NCBI GenBank assembly: GCA_016187835.1
Contig: JACPIY010000079.1
Location: 394-64,393, forward strand
Direction: 5' to 3'
Source: Deltaproteobacteria bacterium
GTDB taxonomy: Bacteria > Desulfobacterota_D > UBA1144 > Nemesobacterales > CSP1-2
Length of the DNA: 64,000 nt
Shown here: piece after piece, positions 4,029-56,926 of the stretch
Layout of the letters: each line of letters starts with the position of its first letter
How positions within the stretch are numbered: the stretch's first letter is position 1
Program-made: the position numbers and the translations under genes
Notes under the pieces: model-generated
Seen by the model: the letters and a program-made list of their open reading frames with translations, nothing else
Databases searched by the model: none
What the model was told of the DNA's origin: nothing

Positions 4029-4079
4029 ATTAATATTTAGCCACAGATTAACACGAATTTACACCGATAAATGATGCAT

Positions 4080-4146
4080 GATGCACGATTCACGATACAT
4101 GATGGATCTTTTATCCTGCATCTTGTATCTTGCATCCTATTTATTT
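4080..4146. repeat. Dispersed heptamer-tandem intergenic element, copy A (inverted relative to copies B and C)
   Basis: 'atgatgc atgatgc acgattc acgatac atgatgg ... atcctgc atcttgt atcttgc atcc'. It is the reverse complement of the GATRCAR/CATGAAT arrays at 32587-32650 and 55364-55447. Confidence 0.6.
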
Positions 4147-4193
4147 CCATTCGTGCTTATCTGTGTCAATTTGTGGCTAATTCTTCAAAATAT

Positions 4194-9607: not shown

Positions 9608-10180
9608 TTATTTCTTCTTTATCCTCTCTATATAAGTTCCCGTTCTCGTATCTACTTTTATCACATCTCCAACGTCAACAAAAAGAGGCACGGAGATCGT
9701 TGATCCGGTTTCAAGTGTTGCAGGCTTAGTTGTATTTGATACGGTATCACCTTTTATGCCAGGTTCAGTTTCGGTTACTTGAAGTTCTACAGTTGTGGGT
9801 AAATCAACGCCAATCGGCTCGTCTTTATAAAAAAAGATATTAACTTCCTGCTGCTCTTTCAGAAACCTTGCCACATCTCCAATCTGCTTTCCGTTAAAGC
9901 CAAGCTGTTCGTAGGTTTCCGAGTCCATAAAGTAATACCCTATTCTATCTTTGTAAAGAAACTGCATAGTTTTTCTCTCAATATCAGGTATGTTAAACGT
10001 CTCACCGGATCGAAAGTTCATTTCCTGAACTGCGCCTGTGATTACGTTTCTGAGCTTTGTCTTTACTACAGGGCCTCGCTGAGCAACCTTTGAATGATGG
10101 TATTCTATAACTTCCCAAATCTGCCCCTCAAGCTCAATTTTGAGTCCCTTATAAAAGCCACTCGTATCAACAACTGCCAT
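9608..10180 (-). CDS. efp: Translation elongation factor P
   Basis: 'MAVVDTSGFYKGLKIELEGQIWEVIEYHHSKVAQRGPVVKTKLRNVITG...' matches full-length EF-P. Confidence 0.9.
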   Translation of the reverse strand: MAVVDTSGFYKGLKIELEGQIWEVIEYHHSKVAQRGPVVKTKLRNVITGAVQEMNFRSGETFNIPDIERKTMQFLYKDRIGYYFMDSETYEQLGFNGKQIGDVARFLKEQQEVNIFFYKDEPIGVDLPTTVELQVTETEPGIKGDTVSNTTKPATLETGSTISVPLFVDVGDVIKVDTRTGTYIERIKKK

Positions 10181-11530: not shown

Positions 11531-12120
11531 TATTTAGAGGTATCTTTCTTATTATTACAAACCGCATCCTCGATCAATTCACATATAATATGGGCAACCG
11601 TAATATGCAGCTCCTGAACCCTTGGCGTCGATGTAGAAGGCACGTTAATACAACAGTCAACAATCTTATTTATCTTTCCTGCATCCCCTCCGGTAAACCC
11701 TATGGTTTTAAGCCCCTCTGATTTTGCGAACTCAAGTGCCTTTACAATATTTGGGGATTTTGCGCTTGTTGAAATTCCCCATGCAACATCCACTTTTTTC
11801 CCAAGGGCTTCAATCTGTCTCAAGAATATATTATCAAAGGATGTATCGTTGCCTATTGATGTAAGAATTGAACTATCAGTAGTAAGTGCAATTGCAGGAA
11901 GTGCCTTACGCTCCTTCTGGTAGCGATTCACAAACTCCGCCGCAATGTGCTGGGCATCGGCCGCACTTCCACCGTTTCCAAAAATTAATATCTTCCCGCC
12001 TGCTTTGAGTGATTTATGGATAATATTTGTTGCTTCTGCTATTTCTTTTATAGACTCTTTTGCAAATCGAAGTTTTAGCTCCGCACTCTCCCTCAGTTTT
12101 GAAATTATTTGCTCTTTCAT
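11530..12120 (-). CDS. gmhA: SIS-domain phosphoheptose isomerase (GmhA/DiaA-like)
   Basis: 'ILIFGNGGSAADAQHIAAEFVNRY' SIS motif. Length 196 aa. Confidence 0.7.
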   Translation of the reverse strand: MKEQIISKLRESAELKLRFAKESIKEIAEATNIIHKSLKAGGKILIFGNGGSAADAQHIAAEFVNRYQKERKALPAIALTTDSSILTSIGNDTSFDNIFLRQIEALGKKVDVAWGISTSAKSPNIVKALEFAKSEGLKTIGFTGGDAGKINKIVDCCINVPSTSTPRVQELHITVAHIICELIEDAVCNNKKDTSK

Positions 12121-12123
12121 AGA

Positions 12124-13947
12124 CTATGATCTCTTAAACATTTTCTCGAGTGCCTGAAACGTAATTTCGCTTGCCACTGGCCTTCCATGAGGACAGGAAT
12201 GTGGAAACTCGGCGCGGTCTAGCTCTTCTAAAAGTGCCCTCATTTTTTCCTGATTGAGTTCCTGACTTGCCCGAACCGAGGAATGACAGGCAATTGTGCA
12301 AATTACATGATCAATATCCTCTTCAAGACTCTTTCCCTCGCCCAGCATTACAATCTCTCCTAACACATCCTTTACAAGCCTTTCTACATCCGCATTCTTA
12401 AGTATCGAAGGAATTGATCTTATAAGGAATGAATCCTTTCCAAATTCTTCAAGCTTTATTCCCAGATTTTCTATCTCCTGCTTATGCTTCTCCAGCAGCT
12501 TGGCTTCATAAGGGGATAGTTCGATCGTTAGTGGAATAAGGAGTTCCTGTTTCACAAGACCGTCCTGTTTTGCATAAGCGTTTTTTAGTTTCTCGTAATT
12601 GACCCTTTCGTGTGCAGCATGCTGGTCAATAAGAATCATGCCCTTTTTTGATGCACAGATTATATAAAGCTTTCCTAGTTGTCCAATTATCTCGAGCTCG
12701 GAGAAAAAGCCCTCTTTTTTGAAAAGATAAGGAGATGTCGTCTCGTGTGAATCAGAAAGGCTCTCAACAATTGTGGAGGATGGTTCATCCACTCGTAATT
12801 CGCTAGTAGTTATGTTTTTTAAAGGTTCATTTTCTTGTTCGTATGAATAATGAGATGAGAAAGAAGCCTTCTTTGGTCCGTCTAAGCGTATAGGCTCAAA
12901 AGATGCCCTTCTTTCAAAAAACCCCTGGACTGCATTTTCAATCCTTTGATGATAGCCTTTTATCCAGGGAGACTGTCTTAACATATCAAACACCGAAGCT
13001 TTTATCAAATCCCCTACGAGTTTAGTTCTTTTAAACCTCACCTCGTTTTTTGTTGGATGGACGTTTACGTCAACTTCCTCGGATGGGATATCTATAAAGA
13101 GAACTCCCTGTGGAAATTTCCCCCTTTCAATTAACTTTCCGTATGAATCGATCATCATCCGTGTAAGAAACCTGTCCCTTACCGCCCTCAAATTAACGTA
13201 GGCGTAGAGCTTCTGCGTGGTGGATCTTGTATCCCCAGGATTGCTCATAAATCCGTAAACCTTAATTCCCTCGGATTCCGCCTCAACTTCAAAAAGCTCT
13301 ACGTCAGGGAAAATTCCAGATAACCTTTCCTCGATTGCCTTCCTCTGGGGTAATTGAATTAAGGTCTCTCCTTCGTGTAATACTTCAAATCCCACACCGG
13401 GACGAGAGAGGGCTTCTCTTTGAACAATATCAAGGACGTTTGTAAGCTCGGTTTCCGTTGTTTTCATAAATTTTAGCCTAGCAGGAGTATTATAGAAAAG
13501 ATTCCCTACCTCAACGGTTGTTCCCTGAGGACACCCTGTTTCTTCGACGCCTTTTATTGTTCCGCCCTCCACTAAAATCCTGACTCCAGCGATTTCGTCT
13601 TTTGTCCTTGTTGTAAGTCTAAACCTGGAAACGCTCGCAATGCTTGGAAGCGCCTCCCCCCGAAACCCAAGCGTTCTTATTGAAAAAAGATCCTTTATAT
13701 CTCTGATTCTGCTAGTGGCGTGACGTTCAAGAGAAAGAAGCGCATCGTCCCTTGTCATACCATCACCATTATCTGAAACGCCTATCAGTTTTTTCCCGCC
13801 TGTTCTAAGTTCTATCTGTATCAATGTGCTTCCTGCATCAAGAGAGTTTTCAAGAAGTTCTTTTACGACAGATGCGGGTCTTTCCACTATTTCCCCGGCC
13901 GCGATTTTGGAGACAAGTTGATCAGTAAGAATTCTAATCTTTCCCAT
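12124..13947 (-). CDS. mutL: DNA mismatch repair protein MutL
   Basis: GHKL ATPase N-terminus 'IAAGEIVERPASVVKELLENSLDAG' and C-terminal 'CPHGRP' endonuclease motif. Confidence 0.9.
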   Translation of the reverse strand: MGKIRILTDQLVSKIAAGEIVERPASVVKELLENSLDAGSTLIQIELRTGGKKLIGVSDNGDGMTRDDALLSLERHATSRIRDIKDLFSIRTLGFRGEALPSIASVSRFRLTTRTKDEIAGVRILVEGGTIKGVEETGCPQGTTVEVGNLFYNTPARLKFMKTTETELTNVLDIVQREALSRPGVGFEVLHEGETLIQLPQRKAIEERLSGIFPDVELFEVEAESEGIKVYGFMSNPGDTRSTTQKLYAYVNLRAVRDRFLTRMMIDSYGKLIERGKFPQGVLFIDIPSEEVDVNVHPTKNEVRFKRTKLVGDLIKASVFDMLRQSPWIKGYHQRIENAVQGFFERRASFEPIRLDGPKKASFSSHYSYEQENEPLKNITTSELRVDEPSSTIVESLSDSHETTSPYLFKKEGFFSELEIIGQLGKLYIICASKKGMILIDQHAAHERVNYEKLKNAYAKQDGLVKQELLIPLTIELSPYEAKLLEKHKQEIENLGIKLEEFGKDSFLIRSIPSILKNADVERLVKDVLGEIVMLGEGKSLEEDIDHVICTIACHSSVRASQELNQEKMRALLEELDRAEFPHSCPHGRPVASEITFQALEKMFKRS

Positions 13948-23808: not shown

Positions 23809-24231
23809 CTATTCTAAATTTAAAAATCTTTCCGAAATTTCAATAAAATCCTTTATATCTTGAAGCTTATTCCTGAGGATATCATAAAGAATTTCGTAGT
23901 TTAACTCTTCATATTCATGCGTTAAAACATTTCTAAACCCAACCAGCTTAGTCATCTTATCTTTCATTTCAGTCTTAATAACATTTTCTTCAGCCAATAT
24001 GACGAAGGATTCGCTCATAGTAGTTGGCTTGCGGAATCCAGAAATTGATATTATTACCTCTGCCAAATCAATTGCTGCTTGACAAACCAAGTACAAATAC
24101 CTCTCTACCGCTCCTCTCAATGTAGCATCTGTTCTTATCTCTTCTATGGAGTAATCTTGATATGACTTGAGTATGGACAAGTATTTTCTGACTAAACTTA
24201 TTTTATTTTCTGCAACGGAAAGATTTGTCAT
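23809..24231 (-). CDS. hepT: HepT-like (HEPN, DUF86) toxin
   Basis: 'RNVLTHEYEELNYEILYDIL' is the HEPN R-x4-6-H motif near the C-terminus. Confidence 0.75.
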   Translation of the reverse strand: MTNLSVAENKISLVRKYLSILKSYQDYSIEEIRTDATLRGAVERYLYLVCQAAIDLAEVIISISGFRKPTTMSESFVILAEENVIKTEMKDKMTKLVGFRNVLTHEYEELNYEILYDILRNKLQDIKDFIEISERFLNLE

Positions 24232-24234
24232 ATT

Positions 24235-24627
24235 TCAGGCTTTGGTCAAACCGTACCTGTCAAGAAGTAATTTAAAATCAAAATACTCATTCAGAATCTT
24301 CGGCTCCACTATAGCCCTAAACGGCTCCTCTTCGTAAATTAAGTGACCCTCACTTATAACATTGAATTTAAACTCCGGCATCTCTGATAAATTCAAAATA
24401 GCAATTTCAACTTTATCCGTGCCTAAAATCCTGCTCAGTTGATCCATCAACTCCAGTTTAATATCAAACATATTCTTTGGATCTTTTTCATCAAAGTAGA
24501 TCGCAAAATCATAATCGCTTAAAGGACCCGCCTCCCCTTTTGCTTGGGAGCCGAACAAGTAGACAAGCTTTATTTCGGGATGGTTTTGAAATACCTTTTT
24601 TAATCTCTTCCTTAATACTTCATTCAT
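24235..24627 (-). CDS. mntA: MntA-type minimal nucleotidyltransferase antitoxin
   Basis: 'LFGSQAKGEAGPLSDYDFAIYF' (GS...DxD NTase motif). Lies upstream of and co-oriented with hepT, with a 3-nt gap. Confidence 0.75.
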   Translation of the reverse strand: MNEVLRKRLKKVFQNHPEIKLVYLFGSQAKGEAGPLSDYDFAIYFDEKDPKNMFDIKLELMDQLSRILGTDKVEIAILNLSEMPEFKFNVISEGHLIYEEEPFRAIVEPKILNEYFDFKLLLDRYGLTKA

Positions 24628-32545: not shown

Positions 32546-32586
32546 GTATAGTTTGCCGTTTATGAGTATTTAGCTACAGATAAAAC

Positions 32587-32650
32587 GATGCAAGATGCAG
32601 GATGCAAGATACAGGATAAATCGTGCATCATGAATCATGAATCATGAATC
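32587..32650. repeat. Dispersed heptamer-tandem intergenic element, copy B
   Basis: 'gatgcaa gatgcag gatgcaa gatacag gat aaatcgtg catcatg aatcatg aatcatg aatc'. Its 3' part supplies the last codons and stop of the BASS gene. Confidence 0.6.
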
Positions 32651-33579
32651 CGAGTATTGTCACTCTTTCTCCACCACCACGCCAACACCGAGCCTGATAT
32701 GTTATGCCATACACTAAACATAGCAGACGGGAGTGCCGCAAGCGCTCCGAAATGCGCTTTCGCAAGTGCCACACCAAGCCCTGAGTTCTGCATCCCGACC
32801 TCTATTGATACTGCCCTAGCCTTGAAATCATCCATCCCCAATAGCTTTGCAATATAAAAACCGAGAGCAAGCCCTATCACGTTATGAAGCATAACTGCAA
32901 GGCCAGTTTTGAGACCGACTTTTCCAATCGTCCCGGCGTTTGACGCAACTATTACCCCCACAATAAAGATAATGGTAACCGAAGAAACCATGGGAAGAAT
33001 CTCGATTGCGGTTTTAACCTTCTCTTTAAACAAGCTTCTTACGCCAAGCCCAAGCGCCACGGGAATAAGGATAATTTCGAATGTAGAAATAAACAGCTTT
33101 AGAACAGGCACAGGAATCCAATGCCCGGCAAGAATATAGGTAAGGAGGGGAGTGAGAACTGGAGAAAGTATCGTAGATACGGATGTCATGGTTACTGAAA
33201 GAGCAACATCTCCTCTTGCCAGATAAGTTATTACATTCGAAGCAGTACCTCCCGGACACGAACCCACAAGCACAACACCGGCTGCAATAAGGGGTTCAAG
33301 CCCCAGAACCTTTGCAAGAGCAAAACCTGTAAAAGGCATAATCCCATACTGAGCCACAAAACCTGCCGCCACGTCCTGGGGCCTTAAGATCACCCTTTTA
33401 AAGTCCGCTCCGGTAAGGGTTATTCCCATACCGAACATTATTACCCCTAGGGCAGGAGTGATGAGATAAGCTAATTTTGCAAAAGTTTCAGGATACGTAT
33501 AGGCAAGAATTGAAAATCCAATTATCCAGAATGTGAAATAATTTGTAAAGACGGTGTTTAGGGACTTGAGAGCTTTCAA
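32635..33579 (-). CDS. Bile acid:sodium symporter (BASS/SBF) family transporter
   Basis: 'LGVIMFGMGITLTGADF...LVGSCPGGTASNVITYLARGDVALSV' is an SBF signature. Confidence 0.7.
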   Translation of the reverse strand: MKALKSLNTVFTNYFTFWIIGFSILAYTYPETFAKLAYLITPALGVIMFGMGITLTGADFKRVILRPQDVAAGFVAQYGIMPFTGFALAKVLGLEPLIAAGVVLVGSCPGGTASNVITYLARGDVALSVTMTSVSTILSPVLTPLLTYILAGHWIPVPVLKLFISTFEIILIPVALGLGVRSLFKEKVKTAIEILPMVSSVTIIFIVGVIVASNAGTIGKVGLKTGLAVMLHNVIGLALGFYIAKLLGMDDFKARAVSIEVGMQNSGLGVALAKAHFGALAALPSAMFSVWHNISGSVLAWWWRKSDNTRIHDS

Positions 33580-36210: not shown

Positions 36211-36527
36211 TTTTAACGTTCTCCTTTTGCAGCTTAACTATTTGACCGCTAATAGACAGGACTAGGTATTAGGTTTTCAGTGACAACAATTAAGTTAAAA
36301 CCTAACAGGCAACACCTCAAACCTAATCCAACAATGTCAATTGGCTTCGTGTTGTGGTTCCTGCAATCCCCCTCTTAAACGCTATAACAAATCCTAGCAC
36401 CTGGCCTCTCAGTGAACTCACGACGAAAACCGACTATAGCCTGCGATTTCGCGGCTTAAGACCTTCGAATTATATTATATTTATCAGAAAAGTTAAACAA
36501 AGGGAATCTATATAATAAAAAAGAATC

Positions 36528-36642
36528 GGGGCAGCTACCTACTTTCCCACTCCCGTACGGGAGCAGTATCATGGGCCTTGAAGAGCTTAACTTCCGGGTT
36601 CGGAATGGGACCGGGTGTTTCCTCTTCAGTATAGCCACCCAG
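36528..36642 (-). rRNA. rrf: 5S ribosomal RNA (stand-alone copy)
   Basis: Minus strand 'UCUGGGUGGCUAUACUGAAGAGGAAACACCCGGUCCCAUUCCGAACCCGGAAGUUAAGCUCUUCAAGGCCCAUGAUACUGCUCCCGUACGGGAGUGGGAAAGUAGGUAGCUGCCCC' matches the bacterial 5S consensus: helix I ends pair, 'CCGAAC...GGAAGUUAAG' loop, 'GGGAGUGGGAAAGUAGG'. Confidence 0.75.
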
Positions 36643-36731: not shown

Positions 36732-37598
36732 ATGGAAGAACTTATAAACAAATTTATTGGAGCACTTGACAGAAGAGAAACAACCAAAGAGACTTATCTC
36801 AAAGCCCTTCGAGAGTTTGCCAAGTGGCTGGGAAAAAGCACTCCTTTAATACTGACCTCCCACGATATTCAACTTTATAAGGAATTTCTGGCTTCTAAGA
36901 ATCTATCTCCAACCTCGCTTTCCACCTACCTTACGGCTGTTAGGAGATTCTACTACTATCTAATTTCAGTAGATATGGTCACCGAAAACCCCGCGAAGAA
37001 AATTAGAGGAAGCGGAAGACCACAAAGGCATCTTAGAGATCCACTATCTCATGATGAAGTAAAAAATCTGCTGGATGCGATTGATCCGTCCTCTTCAGTA
37101 GGACTCAGAGACTGGGCAATGGTAAACTTTATGGTAAGGTGTGGCCTTAGCGAAATAGAAATCGTAAGGGCAAATGCTGGCGATATAAAAGTTAAGGGGG
37201 GTAAGCAGGTGATCTTTGTTCAGGGAAAAAGCAAAGATAAGAAAGACGAATATGTAATACTTACACCTTCCGCACGAGAAGCACTTGAAAAATATCTTGA
37301 AGGCAGAGGGAAAACCAATGAAGATGAACCATTATTTTGTGGTGTAGGAAATAGGGCGAAAGGAGAAAGAATAACAACCCGTGCGATAAGGGAGAGGGTG
37401 AATTATTATCTTAACCTTGCGGGACTTAAAAGAAAGGGGATAACTCCATATAGCCTTCGACACACAGCAGCACTTCTTGCAATCGAAAGCGGAGCAGCAG
37501 TTTCAGAAGTAAAACAAATGCTTCGTCATAAAACAATTGATTCTACTCTAGTTTACTTTGAAGAATCAGAGGAATTAAAGAGAAAAGATAAAATATAA
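36732..37598 (+). CDS. Tyrosine site-specific recombinase (XerC/XerD-like)
   Basis: SAM-like N-domain ('TKETYLKALREFAKWL'). Catalytic domain with 'R...HTAALLAIESGA...LRHKTIDSTLVY' (R-H-R-Y residues). Confidence 0.75.
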   Translation: MEELINKFIGALDRRETTKETYLKALREFAKWLGKSTPLILTSHDIQLYKEFLASKNLSPTSLSTYLTAVRRFYYYLISVDMVTENPAKKIRGSGRPQRHLRDPLSHDEVKNLLDAIDPSSSVGLRDWAMVNFMVRCGLSEIEIVRANAGDIKVKGGKQVIFVQGKSKDKKDEYVILTPSAREALEKYLEGRGKTNEDEPLFCGVGNRAKGERITTRAIRERVNYYLNLAGLKRKGITPYSLRHTAALLAIESGAAVSEVKQMLRHKTIDSTLVYFEESEELKRKDKI

Positions 37599-37687
37599 AA
37601 ATCTATTCGGCTATTTGCTTTGATTCAGAAAACTGACAAGCCAGCTAAAGAAGAGAAGATTAAATCCGAAATTTAGCTATTCTTCTT

Positions 37688-39274
37688 CTAAACAAAACTC
37701 TTTATTGGATAAACTCTACCTGCGCGTTTTAACTTTTTTATTGCTTTTACTTCGATTTGCCTGATTCTTTCTCTCGTCACCTGAAATTCCTGACCCACTT
37801 CTTCAAGTGTATGCTCTCTTTCCCTATCTATGCCAAAGCGAAGCCTTACTATACTCTCCTCCCTGGTGTTAAGAACCGAATAGAGGGCATCTTTTATTAT
37901 CTGCTTGAGTTCTTTCATTTCAAGAACTTGAAGCGGGGATGTCGTGTTTATATCCTGTATAAAATCAATAAGTTTACTATCTTCCTCATCCCCGATCGGA
38001 GTCTCTAGAGAAATCGGATCCTTTGCAATTCTAAGAATCCTTGTAACTTTGTCAATCGGCATACCAACTCTCTTCGCTATTTCTTCAGGGAAAGGCTCAC
38101 GCCCCAGTTCTTGTACAAGAAGCCTCGATACTCTTATAAGTCTGTTTATAGTCTCTGTCATATGAACTGGAATTCTTATTATTCTTGACTGATCCGCAAG
38201 AGACCGGGTTATCGCCTGCCTTATCCACCATGTAGCATAGGTAGAAAACTTGTATCCTCTGTTATATTCAAACTTATCAACAGCACGCATAAGCCCCATG
38301 TTTCCCTCCTGAATCAAATCCAAAAAAGGAAGACCACGGTTAATATATCTTCTTGCTATGCTAACAACGAGCCGCAGATTAGATTCAATCAATCTCTTTC
38401 TCGCTCTGTAAGCTCTCTCCTCTCCAGCCTCGATTTTATCTAGAGACTTTTTAAGTTTCTGAACATTATCTCCAGCTTCTTTTATAAGACCATGGAGTTT
38501 CTTTTTTAGACTACTTCCTGTTTCCAGCGTTGCAGATCTACCATGCTTTTGAGATTCCTTAAATTCTTTTCGGATTTCGCTTATCTGGTTTATGTAACTT
38601 TTAACAACAGAAAGAATTTTATCCATCTGATTTTTATTTAGATTTATTTGTTCTAAAGAAGAAATAATCTTTTCGTTGTTTTCCTTTATCTTTTGTCTTA
38701 GAGATACTCTGCTTTCCATTGGTGACTTGCTAAGATTTTTCTTTATTTTTCCGTTAGCCAGATATAGTTTTTTAATCTCATTTATAGACCGCTTTATTCC
38801 GAGAAGTACTTCCTCCTCTCCTACATCATCCGACTCGTCATCAAGGGTGTTTGTTATATCTCTTACGTTGAGTGTGCCCTTTTTTAATTTTTCACCAAGA
38901 TTAATCACCTCTCTAAGCATTAAAGAGGAACTAAGTATCGCTCTTGCCACCATCATTTTTCCTATCTCAATCTCTTTTGCTATCTGAATCTCTTCTTCTC
39001 TCGTTAGAAGTGAATGACAAGCTATTTCATGGAGATAGTATCTTATTAAATCATATTCACTCAGGCTCTGACCGTTTGTATTAAAATCCTTTGGGGGAGA
39101 CAGTGTCTCTTCCGCTTTATCGTCTTGGTCATAATCCTTTTCATATATTCTCTCTTCAGGAAACTCCTCTTTTTCTTCTTCGTCCCCGAAAGAATCGCTA
39201 AGCAATGGGTCTGCAATGCTATCTTCTTCTCCCTCAGTTTCAAAGTGATACTCATCTTTTTTCTTAATCTTCAT
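37688..39274 (-). CDS. rpoD: RNA polymerase sigma-70 factor RpoD
   Basis: Acidic region 1.1. Region 2 '[13 protein letters not shown]'. Region 4 helix-turn-helix. Overlaps the dnaG stop (ATGA). Confidence 0.9.
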
Positions 39275-41028
39275 GAGCTTCCCCCTTTTATACTTTTCTC
39301 TTGTTCAACTAAGTCCCTGTATTCCTTAATTAGTTCCTTTTCTAGGATAAAATTCTTCATCGCTAAGGCCTGATCTATTTTAAGTCTTAAGAGTCTTAAG
39401 CTATCCTCCAATCTCCTGAGTTTTAAAGTTCGAATACAATCCCTTAGCATCTTCCACGCAGTCGCTTCATCAGGAACATCGTCAGAGAAAAAAACGGTCT
39501 CAGATATAATCTCTTGAACGGACCCGCTGCTAAATCTTATTAGAAGGGAAGGTACATCATCAAAACCGTTTAAAATAAGTTCTTTCAAAACAGTTTTGAT
39601 ATCGTTTTCAGAAATGAAATCAATTAAGTTTTCTTCACGCAAGTAGTTTAAATATTCCGGGAACTTAAGAACAATTTTAAGAATAAGTCGCTCTTGTGTA
39701 TCGGCAGCCTTTTTAGTCTTAAACCTCTCTTTTTCCAATTTTTCGCTATACTTCATCAGAGATAAAAGCTCATTTTCCCTAACGCCGAAACTCTCCCCAG
39801 TCTTTTTTATATAATGGCTTTTTTCAATACTATCTTTAATCTTCTTAAGAACATCAGCTACTTCTTGAACTGCTCTACTCCTCGTTATTTTTCCTTCTTG
39901 AAAATCCCTTATATTTTTTTCTATGAAGATATCTAGAAGCGGTGCTGCACCTTCAACCAACCTTTGAAATTCATCTTGTCTGCCAGCAGAAATAAATGAC
40001 GAGGGATCGTCTCCTTTAGGTAAAACAACCATAAGAGGTGATACTCCCTCCTCGAGAAAAACCTGAAGAACCCTAAGTGAAGCTTTTATCCCAGCTTCAT
40101 CTCCATCAAACACAACTACTACTTTATCAGTGTACCGCTTAAGGAGCATTGCGTGGTCGCGTGTTAAAGAAGTTCCTAACGTGGCAACAGCATTTTTTAT
40201 TCCCGTAAAGTAAAGAGAAAGAAAATCCATGTAGCCTTCTACGACTAATGCCTTGTCAAATTTTCTTATAAAATCCCTGGATTTATCAAGCCCGAATAAG
40301 ACGCTTTTTTTGTGATAAATTTCCGACTCAGGGGAGTTCATATACTTAGGCTCATCTCCGTCTAGAGTCCTCCCTCCAAACCCAACCACCTTGCCATCAA
40401 TGTCTTTTATTGGAAACATTATCCTCTTTCTAAACCTATCATAGTAGCCGTCTTTATTATTTCTTTTAATTACAAGCCCGAGTCTCTCAGCTACACTAAG
40501 TGGAATGTTTTTAGCCGTTAAAAATTGAACTAAAGTATCCCATTCATCAGGAGCATATCCCAGTTGAAATTCTTTTATTATCTCTAATGAGATCCCCCTT
40601 CCTGCTAAATAGTCTATAACCTCTTTGCTCCGTTTGCTCCTACGGAGGAATTCGTGGTAAAAACTACAAACCAAAGAATTTGTCTTGAATAAAATATCTC
40701 TCTTAGATCTATTCTTTACACTTATAGAGGATTTTTCAAGTTTAACATCAGCTCGCCTAGCAAGTTCCTTTACAGATTCGGAAAATGTAAGGTTGTTATA
40801 ACGCATTATAAATCCGAATATATCCCCTCCCGCCCCACAGGCAAAGCAGTGAAAGACCCCTTTTTCTTCATTTACATGAAGAGACGGATTCTTATCGTCA
40901 TGAAATGGGCAAAGACCCACATAACTTTTCCCCGACCTTCTGAGGGACAGGTAATTTTCTATGAGGTTTACAATACTTAACCTCCTTTTTATCTCCTTAA
41001 TAACTGATTCATACGCTAAATTTTCCAT
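39271..41028 (-). CDS. dnaG: DNA primase
   Basis: Zinc ribbon '[30 protein letters not shown]' and TOPRIM domain. Confidence 0.9.
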
Positions 41029-41170
41029 GCAAAAAAACAGATTTTAAAGAAGTTTCAATAACCGGTTTTAACGAAGAATGGAATAGAACAAAACAGTCTA
41101 GGAAAAACAACTTCAAAATGTTGGCCCCCCTTCCGGTGTTAAAATTCAGGCAGCACTAGTTTCTGAGGTT

Positions 41171-41362
41171 TTAGTTTCTTCCAGCCTTTTCTACAAAACG
41201 CTTTTTTGAGGTAAATAATCTTTTTTCCTTTCTTTCACTTGGCTTTTCATAGAACTCTCTCTTTCTTACTTCGGAGAAAACTCCTCCTTTTTCCACCTGC
41301 TTCTTGAATCTCTTAAGCGCGCTGTCAATACTCTCATTGTATCCAACTACAATTCCCGGCAG
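41171..41362 (-). CDS. rpsU: 30S ribosomal protein S21, apparent non-ATG (CTG) start
   Basis: Minus-strand frame encodes '(L)[62 protein letters not shown]', a clear S21. TAA lies immediately upstream in frame. GGAGGG sits 6 nt before CTG. It completes the rpsU-dnaG-rpoD operon and is absent from the ATG-based ORF track. Confidence 0.7.
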
Positions 41363-41736
41363 TTATAACCCTCCAAGAGCTTGGAAAGATTTGTCTTACA
41401 CCCTAAAGTATTAGAATTGTCTTGTCAAGTACAGCTAAGAACTGTACTTTTTAATATTTTAACAAAGACCTTTGTTCACGTAAAATGGAACCCAAACACA
41501 ATTTTAATTTTTTACAGCCGTATTTTTATATCAAATCATTGACGTTAAATCAATAGTACTTTAGTGGTATCCAGTACTAGTACTAGATTTATAAAAACTG
41601 AACGTTTCAATTGGGAAAGTAGCCTCTGGGGTAGTGTATATTGCGCGTATCTTAGATGACACTGGAAGGGCAAAGCTAAAAACCATTTTATGAGCTAAAC
41701 AAAAAGAATTGAGCATTCGATAAACTGCTACTCTTT

Positions 41737-41910
41737 TTACTCCTTTCTAGGAAAAACTCCAACCATTTTCCGGTTTCTTAAGATCTCCTCTTCTTCTTTT
41801 TCTCTATCAACACTAGAGTAATCGTCTGGTTCATCTTTATCCTGACGGTGTTCTTCAAACCTTGCCATCCAAGAATCCTTTTTTTTTCTTATATCATCAA
41901 TAAGGCCCAT
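41737..41910 (-). CDS. Small acidic hypothetical protein (57 aa)
   Basis: ATG with RBS AAGGAGG. 'MGLIDDIRKKKDSWMARFEEHRQDKDEPDDYSSVDREKEEEEILRNRKMVGVFPRKE'. Below the ORF-track size cutoff. Confidence 0.25.
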   Translation of the reverse strand: MGLIDDIRKKKDSWMARFEEHRQDKDEPDDYSSVDREKEEEEILRNRKMVGVFPRKE

Positions 41911-41971
41911 TCTCAGCCTCCTTAATAACTATAATATTAAAAAATACTCTTATGTTTTTCCAAAACAGTTC

Positions 41972-43279
41972 TCAGTTCACTGCTCTAGAGGCGGGTATTA
42001 TATCAACTTCTTCTTTTATTTTAGGTATCATATCAGAGAGTACAATAAGTGTATCAGGATAGGGGTGACAGATTCCTACAGCATGTCCTTTCTCCTTCGA
42101 GATGCTTATAAGTTTTTCAATTTGAGACCTTATGTAATTTACACCCTGTGAACCTTGGTCAAGAAAAACGTCTCTTTGTGCAGTTTTTATCTTCAATTTC
42201 TTTGCTATCTCATATCCGGTTGTATTTTTAGAGGTTTTACTGTCAATAAAAAAGAGCCCCTCGTTTTGTATCCTCTCAAGAACCAAGCCCATAAGTTCAC
42301 TATTCTCCATAAATTTCGACCCCATATGGTTATTCACACCTTTTATGTGAGGAACGGAAGCCAGATTCCTTTCAAGTTTGGCTAAAATCTCTTTTTTCGA
42401 TAAGCCCACAAGAAGCACACCATCCCCGGCATCAACACCAGAATAGCCAGAGGAATCATTGGGTTCCATAGGGAGATGAAGTATAACATCCCATCCCTTT
42501 CTATGAGCCATCTCAGCGGCATATCGAGAATACGGAAGATTGGGTAGGACAGCAAAGTTAAGTGGGGCAGGCAACTTAATAAGCTCATCAATAGGCTCTC
42601 TATTTAACCCCAAGTCATCAACAATGATAACCACTTTAGGCCTTTCTTCTCTGAATATTTTCGTTTCAGGTTTTCTAATACTTGTTTCTTGTTGTATTAT
42701 TTTTGCTTGTTCTATTGAAGAAGTAGAAACTTTTTCCTCCTTAACCGTTTCCTTGGATTCTTTGGCTGGTACTTTAGCATAGAAAACTAATCGGAGTTTA
42801 TGCGTTGGAATATCATGGATTTCTATTTCTGATATAAGAGAACCGTCGCTCTTTTTGAATCTCTGATGAACATAAGGCTCGGAAAGAGATTTTGTAAGAG
42901 TTTCTTGAACTTTCTTCTTGGTAATACCCTCAGGAATATCAATTCTAATATCTTTAAATTCCCAGGTAATTCCGCGTTCGTGTATTTTCGAAACATTCTG
43001 AGATCTAACCTCTTTTATAGAAACATCCAGATTAAATAGCGCATACGCAACACGTCTATCAACGTCCTCTACAAGCTCAGCAAGATCCAAAGAAGAAAAA
43101 CGTTTTTCAGGAACTTCTTGGTAAAGCTTTTTTTTAATATAAGAGAGACCATATAGGCTAAGTACAACAAATATAATAAAACCCAGAGTAAAAATAAAAA
43201 CTCTGCCCCCACTTGTTCCCTTCGCTCTATATCTCTTTCTTGTTTTTATTCTAGCATATGTTCTTAGCCTTCTACTCAA
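41972..43279 (-). CDS. Divergent polysaccharide deacetylase family protein (YibQ-like) with N-terminal TM
   Basis: 'VVIIVDDLGLN...LNFAVLPNLPYSRYAAEMAHRKGWDVILHLPMEP' matches the YibQ-type deacetylase fold. Confidence 0.6.
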   Translation of the reverse strand: MSRRLRTYARIKTRKRYRAKGTSGGRVFIFTLGFIIFVVLSLYGLSYIKKKLYQEVPEKRFSSLDLAELVEDVDRRVAYALFNLDVSIKEVRSQNVSKIHERGITWEFKDIRIDIPEGITKKKVQETLTKSLSEPYVHQRFKKSDGSLISEIEIHDIPTHKLRLVFYAKVPAKESKETVKEEKVSTSSIEQAKIIQQETSIRKPETKIFREERPKVVIIVDDLGLNREPIDELIKLPAPLNFAVLPNLPYSRYAAEMAHRKGWDVILHLPMEPNDSSGYSGVDAGDGVLLVGLSKKEILAKLERNLASVPHIKGVNNHMGSKFMENSELMGLVLERIQNEGLFFIDSKTSKNTTGYEIAKKLKIKTAQRDVFLDQGSQGVNYIRSQIEKLISISKEKGHAVGICHPYPDTLIVLSDMIPKIKEEVDIIPASRAVN

Positions 43280-43294
43280 AAAGAAAAGTCTCCT

Positions 43295-44512
43295 CTAGCC
43301 TTTTGGGAAAGCCTCGGTGAGTTTGTAAGCTTTAATGACCTCTAACGCTCTCTCAAGCTGTATATCCCTATCCTTGTCATTTTCAACAATTATATCCGGC
43401 ATTACACCAACTTCATTAATAGACCTTCCGCTCGGAGCATAAAATTTAGCCGTAGTAAGCTTAAGACCAGATCCGTTTTCTAACCTTATTATGGTCTGAA
43501 CCGACCCTTTACCGAATGTTTTTGTGCCAAGAATAGGTGCCCTTTGACTGTCTTGAAGTGCCTCTGCAACAACTTCAGAAGCACTGGCACTTCCCTTATT
43601 AACGATCACTATAAGGGGATAGTTCTGTAATTTTCCATTTTTTGTAGCGTAGTATTCAGTAGGTTGTGTCCCTGATTTTCCCCTAACGCTAACTATAAGT
43701 CCCCTATCCATAAATTCATCCGCTACCTCCACGGCTTGGGTAAGCAAACCACCTGGGTTATTTCTTAAATCAAGAACAATCCCTTTGAGTTTTCCTCCGT
43801 TTGCAGCTTCCAGTTTTAGTAGGGCGTCCCTTAACTCCTCCGATGTTTTTTCTTGAAACTGAGATAGCTGTATGTATCCAATATGATTATCTACTAATTT
43901 GGATTTAACGCTTTCTACACGGATAATGTCTCTAATTAAAGTTACCTGTCTGGGATTCTCAGTTCCTTTACTTTTTACAGTAACTCTTACGGAACTTCCC
44001 TTAAGACCACGAAGCAGAATTACAGCTTCGTACACAGTCATTCCTCGAGTTGATTTTCCATCAATTGCAATTATCTGATCTTCTGGTTTAATACCCGCCT
44101 TTGCAGCAGGTGTACCATCAATAGGAGTTATCACCGTAAGTACGTCGTTTTCAAGTGTAATCTCCATTCCCACACCCCCGAACTCGCCTGTAGTTCCTAT
44201 CTCAATCTCTTTGTATCGTTCAGGCGTAAGATATACCGAATAGGGATCAAGCGTCTTTAACATTCCTTCTATTGCGCCAGTAGTAAGCTTTCCGGGATTA
44301 ACTTCTTCGACGTAATTTCTTTCGATTAAATCCAGCACTCTTGTAAAATCAGAAAGCCCTTTATATGCGGACTCATCCTGAGCTAAAGTATTTACCGTGG
44401 AAATGACAAGAAATAGAGGCAAAAGAATTATGGAAAACCTTTTCATATTACCCCCCACTTTAAAGTAATGGTTAACGTTAAAAAACCCAATATTCCTATA
44501 AATACTACTCAA
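43295..44512 (-). CDS. ctpA: Carboxyl-terminal processing protease (S41) with PDZ domain
   Basis: 'GGVGMEI', PDZ segment, and catalytic 'NKGSASASEVVAEALQD' region. Signal peptide. Confidence 0.85.
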   Translation of the reverse strand: MSSIYRNIGFFNVNHYFKVGGNMKRFSIILLPLFLVISTVNTLAQDESAYKGLSDFTRVLDLIERNYVEEVNPGKLTTGAIEGMLKTLDPYSVYLTPERYKEIEIGTTGEFGGVGMEITLENDVLTVITPIDGTPAAKAGIKPEDQIIAIDGKSTRGMTVYEAVILLRGLKGSSVRVTVKSKGTENPRQVTLIRDIIRVESVKSKLVDNHIGYIQLSQFQEKTSEELRDALLKLEAANGGKLKGIVLDLRNNPGGLLTQAVEVADEFMDRGLIVSVRGKSGTQPTEYYATKNGKLQNYPLIVIVNKGSASASEVVAEALQDSQRAPILGTKTFGKGSVQTIIRLENGSGLKLTTAKFYAPSGRSINEVGVMPDIIVENDKDRDIQLERALEVIKAYKLTEAFPKG

Positions 44513-55300: not shown

Positions 55301-55363
55301 TAAGTATTCAGCCACGAAAATGCGGGGTTGTAGGTCGGGCATTTCGGCGAAGCCAATTGACAC

Positions 55364-55447
55364 AGATACAGGATCCAGGATACAAGATGCATGTAAAAAC
55401 TTTCGTGAATTATGCATCATACATCGTGCATCATGAATCTTGCATCA
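55364..55447. repeat. Dispersed heptamer-tandem intergenic element, copy C
   Basis: 'gatacag gatccag gatacaa gatgcat g...atcgtg catcatg aatcttg catca', same orientation as copy B. Confidence 0.55.
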
Positions 55448-56920: not shown

Positions 56921-56926
56921 AAAATC

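Follow-up and report, generated by a model that had tools for sequence, protein, structure and literature searches.

The DNA analysed here is a 64,000-nt (64-kb) stretch of a Deltaproteobacteria bacterium genome (GenBank assembly GCA_016187835.1, contig JACPIY010000079.1, positions 394 to 64,393; hereafter the window), whose nearest named relatives are Thermodesulfobacteriota and Candidatus Dadabacteria. The RtcB encoded in the window is identical to a protein of a metagenome-assembled genome labelled 'Deltaproteobacteria bacterium', and an exact-protein look-up of this RtcB gave no record. The window contains three arrays of tandem heptamers, at positions 4066-4136 (site A), 32587-32650 (site B) and 55365-55446 (site C), each in a short spacer between co-directional genes that the element nearly fills. 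Site A lies between the stop codon of a CarboxypepD_reg-like open reading frame (ORF) and the start of a HAMP-adenylate/guanylate cyclase gene, site B between the stop of an SBF-family transporter gene and the start of an EamA/DMT (drug/metabolite transporter) gene, and site C between archease and rtcB. An initial annotation, made from the letters of the window alone, had described a dispersed intergenic repeat family with strict 7-nt periodicity, and this description holds, as the repeat is real and is also found in relatives and in many other genomes. The heptamers reported at 32587-32650 and 55364-55447 were recovered both by reading the letters and with Tandem Repeats Finder; three arrays do exist, but the third lies at 4066-4136 and not at 4080-4146. 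Tandem Repeats Finder confined period-7 arrays to these three sites, bar two trivial A-rich runs. Likewise, the window holds 17 exact matches to GATNCANGATNCA, a degenerate pattern of two units, against 0.08 expected from dinucleotide-preserving shuffles, 16 of the 17 falling in sites A, B and C, and 30 matches against 4.15 expected when one mismatch is allowed. The lone exact match outside, GATACAAGATCCA at 13221-13233 (minus strand) within a 607-aa ORF (12124-13947), is most likely due to chance.

The arrays are made of tandem heptamers, as annotated, but the two blocks that had been told apart, GATRCAR and CATGAAT, are one and the same unit family, GATNCAN, on opposite strands. First-block matches fall on the plus strand and second-block matches on the minus strand, so that at each site one unit family forms an inverted repeat and, with it, an imperfect hairpin. 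The arms are 71-83% complementary because five of the seven unit positions are fixed, and they stand 2 nt apart at site A, about 9 nt apart at site B and 12-19 nt apart at site C. Copy A is indeed inverted relative to copy B but lacks the 20-bp insert that had been ascribed to it, and the insert of ~30 bp ascribed to copy C is an overestimate of its between-arm distance.

Site A has the most complete anatomy. Its inner left arm (4066-4103, plus strand) reads GATAAAT GATGCAT GATGCAC GATTCAC GATACAT GAT, with a pyrimidine at position 7, and its inner right arm (4106-4136, minus strand) reads, in reverse complement, GATGCAA GATACAA GATGCAG GATAAAA GAT, with a purine at position 7; positions 4073-4103 and 4106-4136 form an inverted repeat that is 77% complementary. 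This heptamer core is central in a 150-nt palindrome (4032-4185) whose outer arms consist of ~10-nt units (TTAGCCACRGAT...) with a CAC..RAT core. The outer left arm (4032-4065) carries TTAGCCACAGAT / TAACACGAAT / TTACACCGAT and constitutes a terminal inverted repeat of a decamer-type palindrome, and the outer right arm (4137-4185) reads, in reverse complement, TTAGCCACAAAT TGACACAGAT AAGCACGAAT and so on. Positions 4032-4054 and 4163-4185 are 83% complementary, and the outer-arm pattern AGCCACRRATNNACACRRAT is matched at 4039-4058 (plus strand) and 4159-4178 (minus strand).

Sites B and C hold remnants of such outer decamer arms. At site B a single remnant is left (TTTAGCTACAGAT; TTTAGCTACAGATAAAAC at 32569-32586, plus strand), and the opposite outer arm is missing; the orthologous loci L255 and L258 of two relatives keep both. 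The purine-type arm (32587-32621, plus strand) reads GATGCAA GATGCAG GATGCAA GATACAG GATAAAT, and the pyrimidine-type arm (32616-32650, minus strand) reads, in reverse complement, three GATTCAT units, GATGCAC and GATTTAT and overlaps the SBF stop codon (32635-32637), so that the letters at 32587-32650 are GATGCAA GATGCAG GATGCAA GATACAG GATAAATCG TGCATC ATGAATC ATGAATC ATGAATC. At site C the outer arm (55306-55364, plus strand) is disrupted (ATTCAGCCACGAA, an insert, then CCAATTGACACAGAT), the orthologous spacer of locus L127 having its outer arms intact; the left arm (55365-55392, plus strand) reads GATACAG GATCCAG GATACAA GATGCAT and the right arm (55405-55446, minus strand), in reverse complement, GATGCAA GATTCAT GATGCAC GATGTAT GATGCAT AATTCAC. 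All three sites thus share the anatomy of a miniature inverted-repeat transposable element (MITE): terminal inverted repeats, a length of 64-150 nt and no coding content. Their stems are predicted to be more stable than shuffled sequences (z = -2.6 to -8 on the better strand), the 150-nt palindrome of site A reaching minimum free energies of -47 and -52 kcal/mol on its two strands (z = -7 and -8), but only one of the three sites has the mRNA-sense strand as its better-folding one.

The position of the elements is that of intercistronic spacers and not, as annotated, of promoter or 5' regions: at sites A-C, promoter-like and terminator-like consensus matches do not exceed shuffle expectation. 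An intrinsic terminator was considered and rejected, since the outer palindromes have T-runs before and A-runs after them, which is the wrong way round. Searches of Rfam (Rfam 15) with the window elements gave no match at the gathering threshold and, at E-values up to 10, just generic long-hairpin microRNA models far under their cut-offs. The SBF reading frame extends 16 nt into element B, and the window ORF (32635-32660, minus strand) ends in RKSDNTRIHDS and a stop codon inside the element, whereas its counterparts end in RRKDANN (L255) and RRKDTNN (L258) immediately ahead of it. The repeat has thus rewritten the C-terminus of the transporter.

Comparison of the orthologous spacers at sites C and B shows how these elements change. 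Between archease and rtcB, the spacer is 174 nt long in the window, with 4+5 heptamer units; in L127 (RtcB 86% identical) it is 171 nt long, both outer decamer arms are intact and only 2+3 heptamers are present; in L124-126 (85%) it is 87 nt long and holds a remnant; in L121 (94%) it is 125 nt long and has no heptamers; and in L122-123 (89%) it is 31 nt long and empty. Between SBF and EamA, L249 (EamA 97% identical) has the window's element with 2 units instead of 4 in the pyrimidine-type arm (a 14-nt difference), L255 (88%) has both outer arms and a heptamer core in the opposite orientation, and L258 (Dadabacteria CSP1-2, positions 9725-9950; 85%) has kept the outer arms around a ~200-nt core of CCAAATN-like 7-mers, not GATNCAN. 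Heptamer copy number, which the initial annotation had proposed to compare between strains, therefore does vary (4 vs 2 units in the window and L249, 4+5 vs 2+3 in the window and L127). Further copies occur elsewhere: L127 carries an extra GATNCAN hairpin (11531-11600) in its 172-nt rtcB-serS spacer, which measures 6 nt in the window (56921-56926), and L122 carries another composite copy at a different place. Unit numbers rise and fall, elements flip, one core takes the place of another and copies come and go, which is the behaviour of a repeat element and not that of a conserved operator or RNA.

The architecture extends well beyond this lineage. When 185,579 species genomes were scanned for runs of four GATNCAN units, at least 120 loci from many phyla were retrieved, and about a fifth of the matches listed have the inverted two-arm architecture, their carriers including Nitrospirota/Thermodesulfovibrionales, Deltaproteobacteria, Armatimonadetes, Bacteroidota, WOR-3, Roizmanbacteria, Alloalcanivorax and others. 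The intergenic hairpins often lie 5-40 nt from both neighbouring genes, and their outermost units tend to GATGCA at both ends. Seventeen of them, from several phyla, could be classified by neighbour orientation with a crude ORF caller: 14 lie between co-directional genes, 2 between convergent and 1 between divergent genes. The outer-arm pattern AGCCACRRATNNACACRRAT has at least 120 metagenome loci of its own. Among the matches listed, it belongs to very abundant palindromes with a median length of ~97 nt and the layout TTTT-AGCCAC-RGAT-(NNACACRGAT)2 ... mirror ... GTGGCT-AAAA, none of which contains a GATNCAN array. As these listed palindromes are devoid of GATNCAN arrays, the composite of the window lineage represents two palindrome types that are nested or fused. 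Rfam has no family for these palindromes, and a literature search with decamer strings returned primers only.

We compared the variable positions of the two arms with shuffled units in 26 hairpins (103 unit pairs). Position 4 is complementary in 37 of the 103 pairs, against 32.5 +/- 4.4 in shuffles, and position 7 in 26, against 26.8. Hairpin complementarity stems only from the fixed GAT and CA, and covariation is absent. In the window, position 7 is a pyrimidine in one arm and a purine in the other, which places a Y.Y or R.R mismatch every 7 nt, and the same pattern recurs in Nitrospirota and relatives; this asymmetry arises because each arm is internally homogeneous. A functional asymmetry at position 7, for example to mark a strand-specific hairpin, was rejected: pyrimidine/purine arm pairs account for 12 of the 26 hairpins, purine/purine pairs for 6 and pyrimidine/pyrimidine pairs for none, which by a rough estimate is not significantly different from random arm pairing.

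A link to protein-coding elements emerged when ORFs within 300 nt of the arrays were clustered at about 240 element-bearing loci, which gave two element-adjacent families: PF05635 beside heptamer arrays and PF13366 beside decamer arms. PF05635 is the family of the 23S rRNA intervening-sequence protein (IVP, ~125 aa), a four-helix bundle that resembles Avd, a protein of diversity-generating retroelements (PMC10053308). In L112 (Nitrospirae) the order is GATGCAA GATGCAC GATGCGT GATGCAT GATAAAAG-ATG...ORF...CATCG TGCATC A TGAATC G TGAATC G TGTATC, and inverted arrays therefore bracket the PF05635 gene. Further PF05635 loci were fetched by protein identity, independently of the DNA pattern. At cusB-IVP-cusA, 2 (L260) or 3 (L270) GATNCAN units stand upstream and 4 NTGNATC units downstream in both; in the ppa neighbourhood, L280 has 9 upstream and 4 downstream units and L281 only 4 units in its left array; at ligA-IVP-nfo (L287), the arrays are degenerate and the bracketing is weak. 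Four operon spacers, independent of one another, thus show the bracketing, in Nitrospirota, Brocadia-type Planctomycetes and Thermodesulfobacteriota, and the bracketed genes lie 17-50 nt from their neighbours, in the very niche of the window hairpins. Within the clade to which these proteins belong (P0241-P0360), identity is 75-87% between members from Nitrospirota, Planctomycetes (Brocadia), Thermodesulfobacteriota and Syntrophaceae, far above the expectation for vertical descent, which suggests horizontal mobility; the clade was not found in viral contigs. When the left and right ends of L112 are joined, they align end to end with site B (plus orientation) and site A (minus orientation) with scores of 69 and 57, where the opposite orientation scores 32 and 37, and the 17-mer ATCGTGCATCATGAATC, which spans the ORF stop codon in L112, is identical in the alignment. 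This is suggestive of kinship, and only suggestive because the arms are of low complexity.

The second family, PF13366 (GxxExxY, PD-(D/E)XK), is represented by ~130-aa genes between or beside inverted decamer arms (AGCCACRGATNNACACRGAT) at L187 (6293-6755), L150 (963-1425), L136 (91-737) and L215 (1462-1901), that is, at 4 of 120 metagenome loci chosen solely by the arm motif, among the matches listed. No PF13366 gene is present in the window or its relatives examined. PF05635 genes were also seen with other heptamers: L093 (3856-4600) has long GGTCTGT-type arrays on both sides of the gene, and L022 (479-617) has a CCGTCAT/CCATCAT/CCTGCAT array downstream of it. What PF05635 is associated with may thus be 7-nt periodicity and not any one unit sequence.

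On balance, we think that sites A-C are probably ORF-less, MITE- or REP-like (repetitive extragenic palindromic) members of a family of small palindromic elements, akin to PF05635 cassettes of the intervening-sequence (IVS) type. The ends of such an element would be inverted arrays of the heptamer GATNCAN, and its full-length relatives would carry the ~125-aa PF05635 gene between the same inverted arrays in tight operon spacers. In the window lineage, the heptamer hairpin is nested in, or fused to, the abundant palindrome of 10-nt units, and the arms would evolve by slippage. The window copies may derive from PF05635 cassettes or, alternatively, may be their preferred landing sites. The elements would be co-transcribed with the flanking genes, their arms pairing into a long mismatched stem that, by analogy with the stems of 23S rRNA IVSs, would be a plausible substrate of RNase III; a cut at this place would have the effect of uncoupling the two cistrons, or of giving them different stability, and not of regulating them specifically. 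It is likelier that the elements ride along in operons as genomic passengers than that they are binding sites of a regulator. They probably should be masked as ordinary repeats instead of being annotated as operators or small RNAs, and they account for differences in spacer length within operons and for the changed SBF C-terminus between close relatives. Membership of a known REP or MITE family had been put forward as an argument against the initial annotation; our reading comes close to it, but the family is known only descriptively. The lead of wider interest is that inverted period-7 and period-10 arrays may form the ends of tiny PF05635 and PF13366 cassettes.

Among the closest known systems are the IVSs of 23S rRNA genes (S23p/PF05635), as in Leptospira and Coxiella. 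The Coxiella IVS has been described as a selfish element with a PF05635-type ORF, whose terminal inverted repeats pair into a 28-bp stem that RNase III cuts (PMC4990558). IVSs resemble the window elements in being small, with inverted-repeat ends and a long, slightly mismatched stem, and in their sporadic, horizontal-looking distribution, and their ORF belongs to the very family found between GATNCAN arrays in L112, L260, L270 and L280. They differ in location and content: the window copies are devoid of an ORF and lie in mRNA spacers instead of helix 25 or 45 of 23S rRNA, the gene of which is absent from the window. RNase III cleavage was demonstrated for the 23S IVS (PMC4990558), and its extension to the window stems is by analogy. 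With MITEs, the window elements share the traits listed above, but their longer relatives with the same ends encode PF05635 or PF13366 and not a known transposase.

Several observations weigh against kinship with PF05635 cassettes. (i), In viral contigs, four GATNCAN units have 74 loci, against 64, at least 120 and at least 120 for three composition-matched permuted heptamers; as these controls are equally common or commoner, the cross-phylum breadth of GATNCAN alone is not evidence of one family, and the idea that GATNCAN is a specially conserved cross-phylum motif was rejected on this ground. (ii), Four independent PF05635 loci were inspected, of which one is weak and one was found via the DNA pattern. 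(iii), Relative to the ORF, pyrimidine- and purine-type arms are oriented one way in L112 and another way in L260/L270. (iv), The alignment of L112 with the window and the shared 17-mer could come from the unit consensus, only four variable positions being in agreement. (v), The PF05635 gene is absent from the window and from ~150 kb of close relatives. (vi), The elements have no associated transposase, and ORF clustering in the flanks of about 240 loci gave no recurrent transposase-like family. (vii), A target-site duplication is not definable, because filled and empty orthologous spacers are too diverged to set the ends. (viii), The SBF-EamA spacer is occupied in all four lineages examined, down to ~85% protein identity, and this conserved occupancy could mean that the element is useful there.

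The last point would also suit a regulator, and the initial annotation had proposed a repeat-binding one that reads the heptamers as half-sites. The arrays would then be contiguous heptad sites on double-stranded DNA for a sequence-specific protein, of the IHF/HU (integration host factor) type or a ribbon-helix-helix (RHH) protein like the omega repressor, organising or regulating the neighbouring genes, which we consider unlikely. The units do look like protein-read heptads, with GAT and CA fixed (5/7), positions 4 and 7 free to vary and arms without covariation, unlike a selected helix, and the persistent occupancy of the SBF-EamA spacer points the same way. In the pSM19035 system, the omega repressor binds WATCACW heptads that adjoin one another in direct and inverted arrays, and such operators of inc18 plasmids, where one dimer occupies each 7-bp unit, lie at plasmid promoters together with a linked RHH gene. 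The WATCACW unit, the plasmid setting, the promoter location and the linked RHH gene set these operators apart, as none of them is found at the window sites. More similar are the 'class 3 putative global regulator binding sites' of Geobacter metallireducens (Gmet_I301-I308), eight opposite-strand pairs of about five heptanucleotides with the consensus MTYCTGA, one of them between proB and proA, for which IHF/HU binding was proposed (Aklujkar et al. 2009, PMC2700814). Like the window elements, they are paired opposite-strand arrays at variable distance, multicopy and intergenic, including inside operons, and their consensus overlaps the window unit (ATCCTGA is, by our analysis, the reverse complement of GATTCAG in another register). 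The Geobacter units listed, such as ATTCTGA and CTCCTGA, nevertheless differ from the window units NTGNATC in their variable bases, and neither outer decamer arms nor a PF05635 link was reported for them (PMC2700814). The window element had been called novel, which overstates the case given this 2009 annotation of paired inverted heptamer arrays and the frequency of heptamer repeats at large (PMC4679880). A protein reader fits poorly with the intercistronic position of the sites and their chance-level promoter-like signal, with an orientation that flips between copies and even at one orthologous locus, with a unit number that differs at 97% identity (L249), with the other heptamer in the orthologous spacer of L258 and with the lack of the element in the archease-rtcB spacer of the closest relatives; moreover, no candidate binding protein is linked to the sites in the window. 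On present evidence, the identification as regulator sites is not supported.

It is improbable, too, that the arrays are ordinary 7-nt microsatellites produced by slippage, which stand in inverted pairs by happenstance and have no identity as elements, no mobility and no function. Heptamer arrays are generically common, composition-matched control heptamers match viral contigs as often as GATNCAN or more often, and polymorphism in unit number is just what slippage produces, as is consistent with arms that are each homogeneous, of pyrimidine or purine type. Chance, however, does not readily yield a two-arm inverted architecture of one unit three times in 64 kb, against an expectation of 0.08, nor outermost units that tend to GATGCA at both ends, nor hairpins nested in a second conserved palindrome with termini common to different loci and genomes, nor the bracketing of PF05635 genes by the same arrays at independent loci. 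Among the tandem heptamers already described, the short tandemly repeated repetitive (STRR) sequences of heterocystous cyanobacteria have the units CCCCAGT, TTGGTCA and CAACAGT. Membership of the cyanobacterial STRR or small dispersed repeat (SDR) families was rejected, since the units differ and the organism is a Dadabacteria-like member of the Thermodesulfobacteriota. Heptanucleotide tandem repeats are a common class in prokaryotes, with TAACTGA repeats in Beggiatoaceae as an example (PMC4679880), and an excess of them in prokaryotes was reported by Mrazek (2007), as cited in that paper; heptamers have also been described at recF/recO in Nostoc (bioRxiv 10.1101/2022.06.06.494920). The STRR, TAACTGA and Nostoc repeats share with the window arrays the period of 7, an intergenic location often near start codons, a variable number of units and a scattered phylogeny, but they are mostly one-directional and built of other units, a single inverted case being reported for TAACTGA.

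A still slimmer chance attaches to REP elements, or their mosaics and doublets (bacterial interspersed mosaic elements, BIMEs, and REPINs), maintained by a REP-associated tyrosine transposase (RAYT, a Y1 HUH transposase) encoded elsewhere in the genome. The window elements are likewise short, imperfect, non-coding palindromes that lie in extragenic spacers with co-directional genes on either side; both orientations occur, with a mosaic nesting of two palindrome types, and spacer occupancy persists in relatives while the sequence turns over. Persistent occupancy with sequence turnover is known for BIMEs. The hairpins lack, however, the GTAG-type tetranucleotide at their foot, the outer arms beginning with TTAGCCAC, and the arms are phased tandem heptamers and decamers instead of a single palindrome of 20-40 nt. 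The window covers only 64 kb of the genome, and the families recurrent in the flanks of the about 240 loci were PF05635 and PF13366, none of them transposase-like.

Least of all do we expect a functional structured RNA, be it the small RNA of the initial annotation, a cis-regulatory hairpin or a sponge of the CsrA type: folding predictions give the stems greater stability than shuffles, one strand is favoured by G.U-compatible substitutions, (GATGCAG)n is a cyclic permutation of the CsrB repeat CAGGAUG and CAGGAT occurs in purine-type arms, but Rfam offers no match at gathering threshold and, at E-values up to 10, nothing beyond the generic microRNA models, the variable positions do not covary, the better-folding strand is the sense strand at one site in three, promoter- and terminator-like features stay at chance level, presence varies among close relatives, and a CsrA sponge was rejected in particular because GGA is found in a minority of units, inside the stem and not in loops, with an inconsistent orientation to transcription.

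If sites A-C are indeed ORF-less kin of PF05635 cassettes, it is tempting to speculate further, although we find it rather doubtful, that inverted arrays of phased units are the functional ends of a large class of tiny mobile cassettes that occur across phyla, with PF05635 (7-nt units) or PF13366 (10-nt units) as sole cargo. The encoded proteins, on this view of a nucleic-acid-binding or nuclease-like kind, would recognise the arrays, the window hairpins would be the MITEs of such cassettes, 23S IVSs would be their landings in rRNA genes and part of the heptanucleotide excess would be their debris. Were bracketing by arrays general, it would provide a testable origin for the 23S rRNA intervening sequences, a function to test for PF05635 and PF13366, two large uncharacterised families of small proteins, and one contributor to the excess of heptanucleotide repeats seen in bacteria.

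Some additional features of these genomes deserve mention. A deltaproteobacterial hairpin in L003 (2636-2817) has on either side of it, at 7-10 nt from the outer edge of its arrays, the near-identical sequences CTCTAAGGAGG / CTCTAAAGGAGG (stop codon and Shine-Dalgarno sequence), which may be a duplication made at insertion. The window contains a lone 5S rRNA gene (36526-36642, minus strand) with no adjoining 23S gene, immediately followed by a tyrosine recombinase (Phage_integrase) gene (36732-37598, plus strand). The ~6 kb after the recombinase gene (37600-44000) have a lower G+C content (0.38) and a strongly negative GC skew, and this region may be an island integrated beside the 5S gene. 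Finally, an MNT (Polbeta/NTP_transf_2) and HepT toxin-antitoxin pair is encoded at 23809-24627 (minus strand) of the window, and a pair that agrees with it in Pfam families and in product lengths (130 and 140 aa) lies directly after EamA in L255 (3246-4063), where the window has nothing. If the two pairs, likened here by Pfam family and length, are homologous, then the pair has moved.

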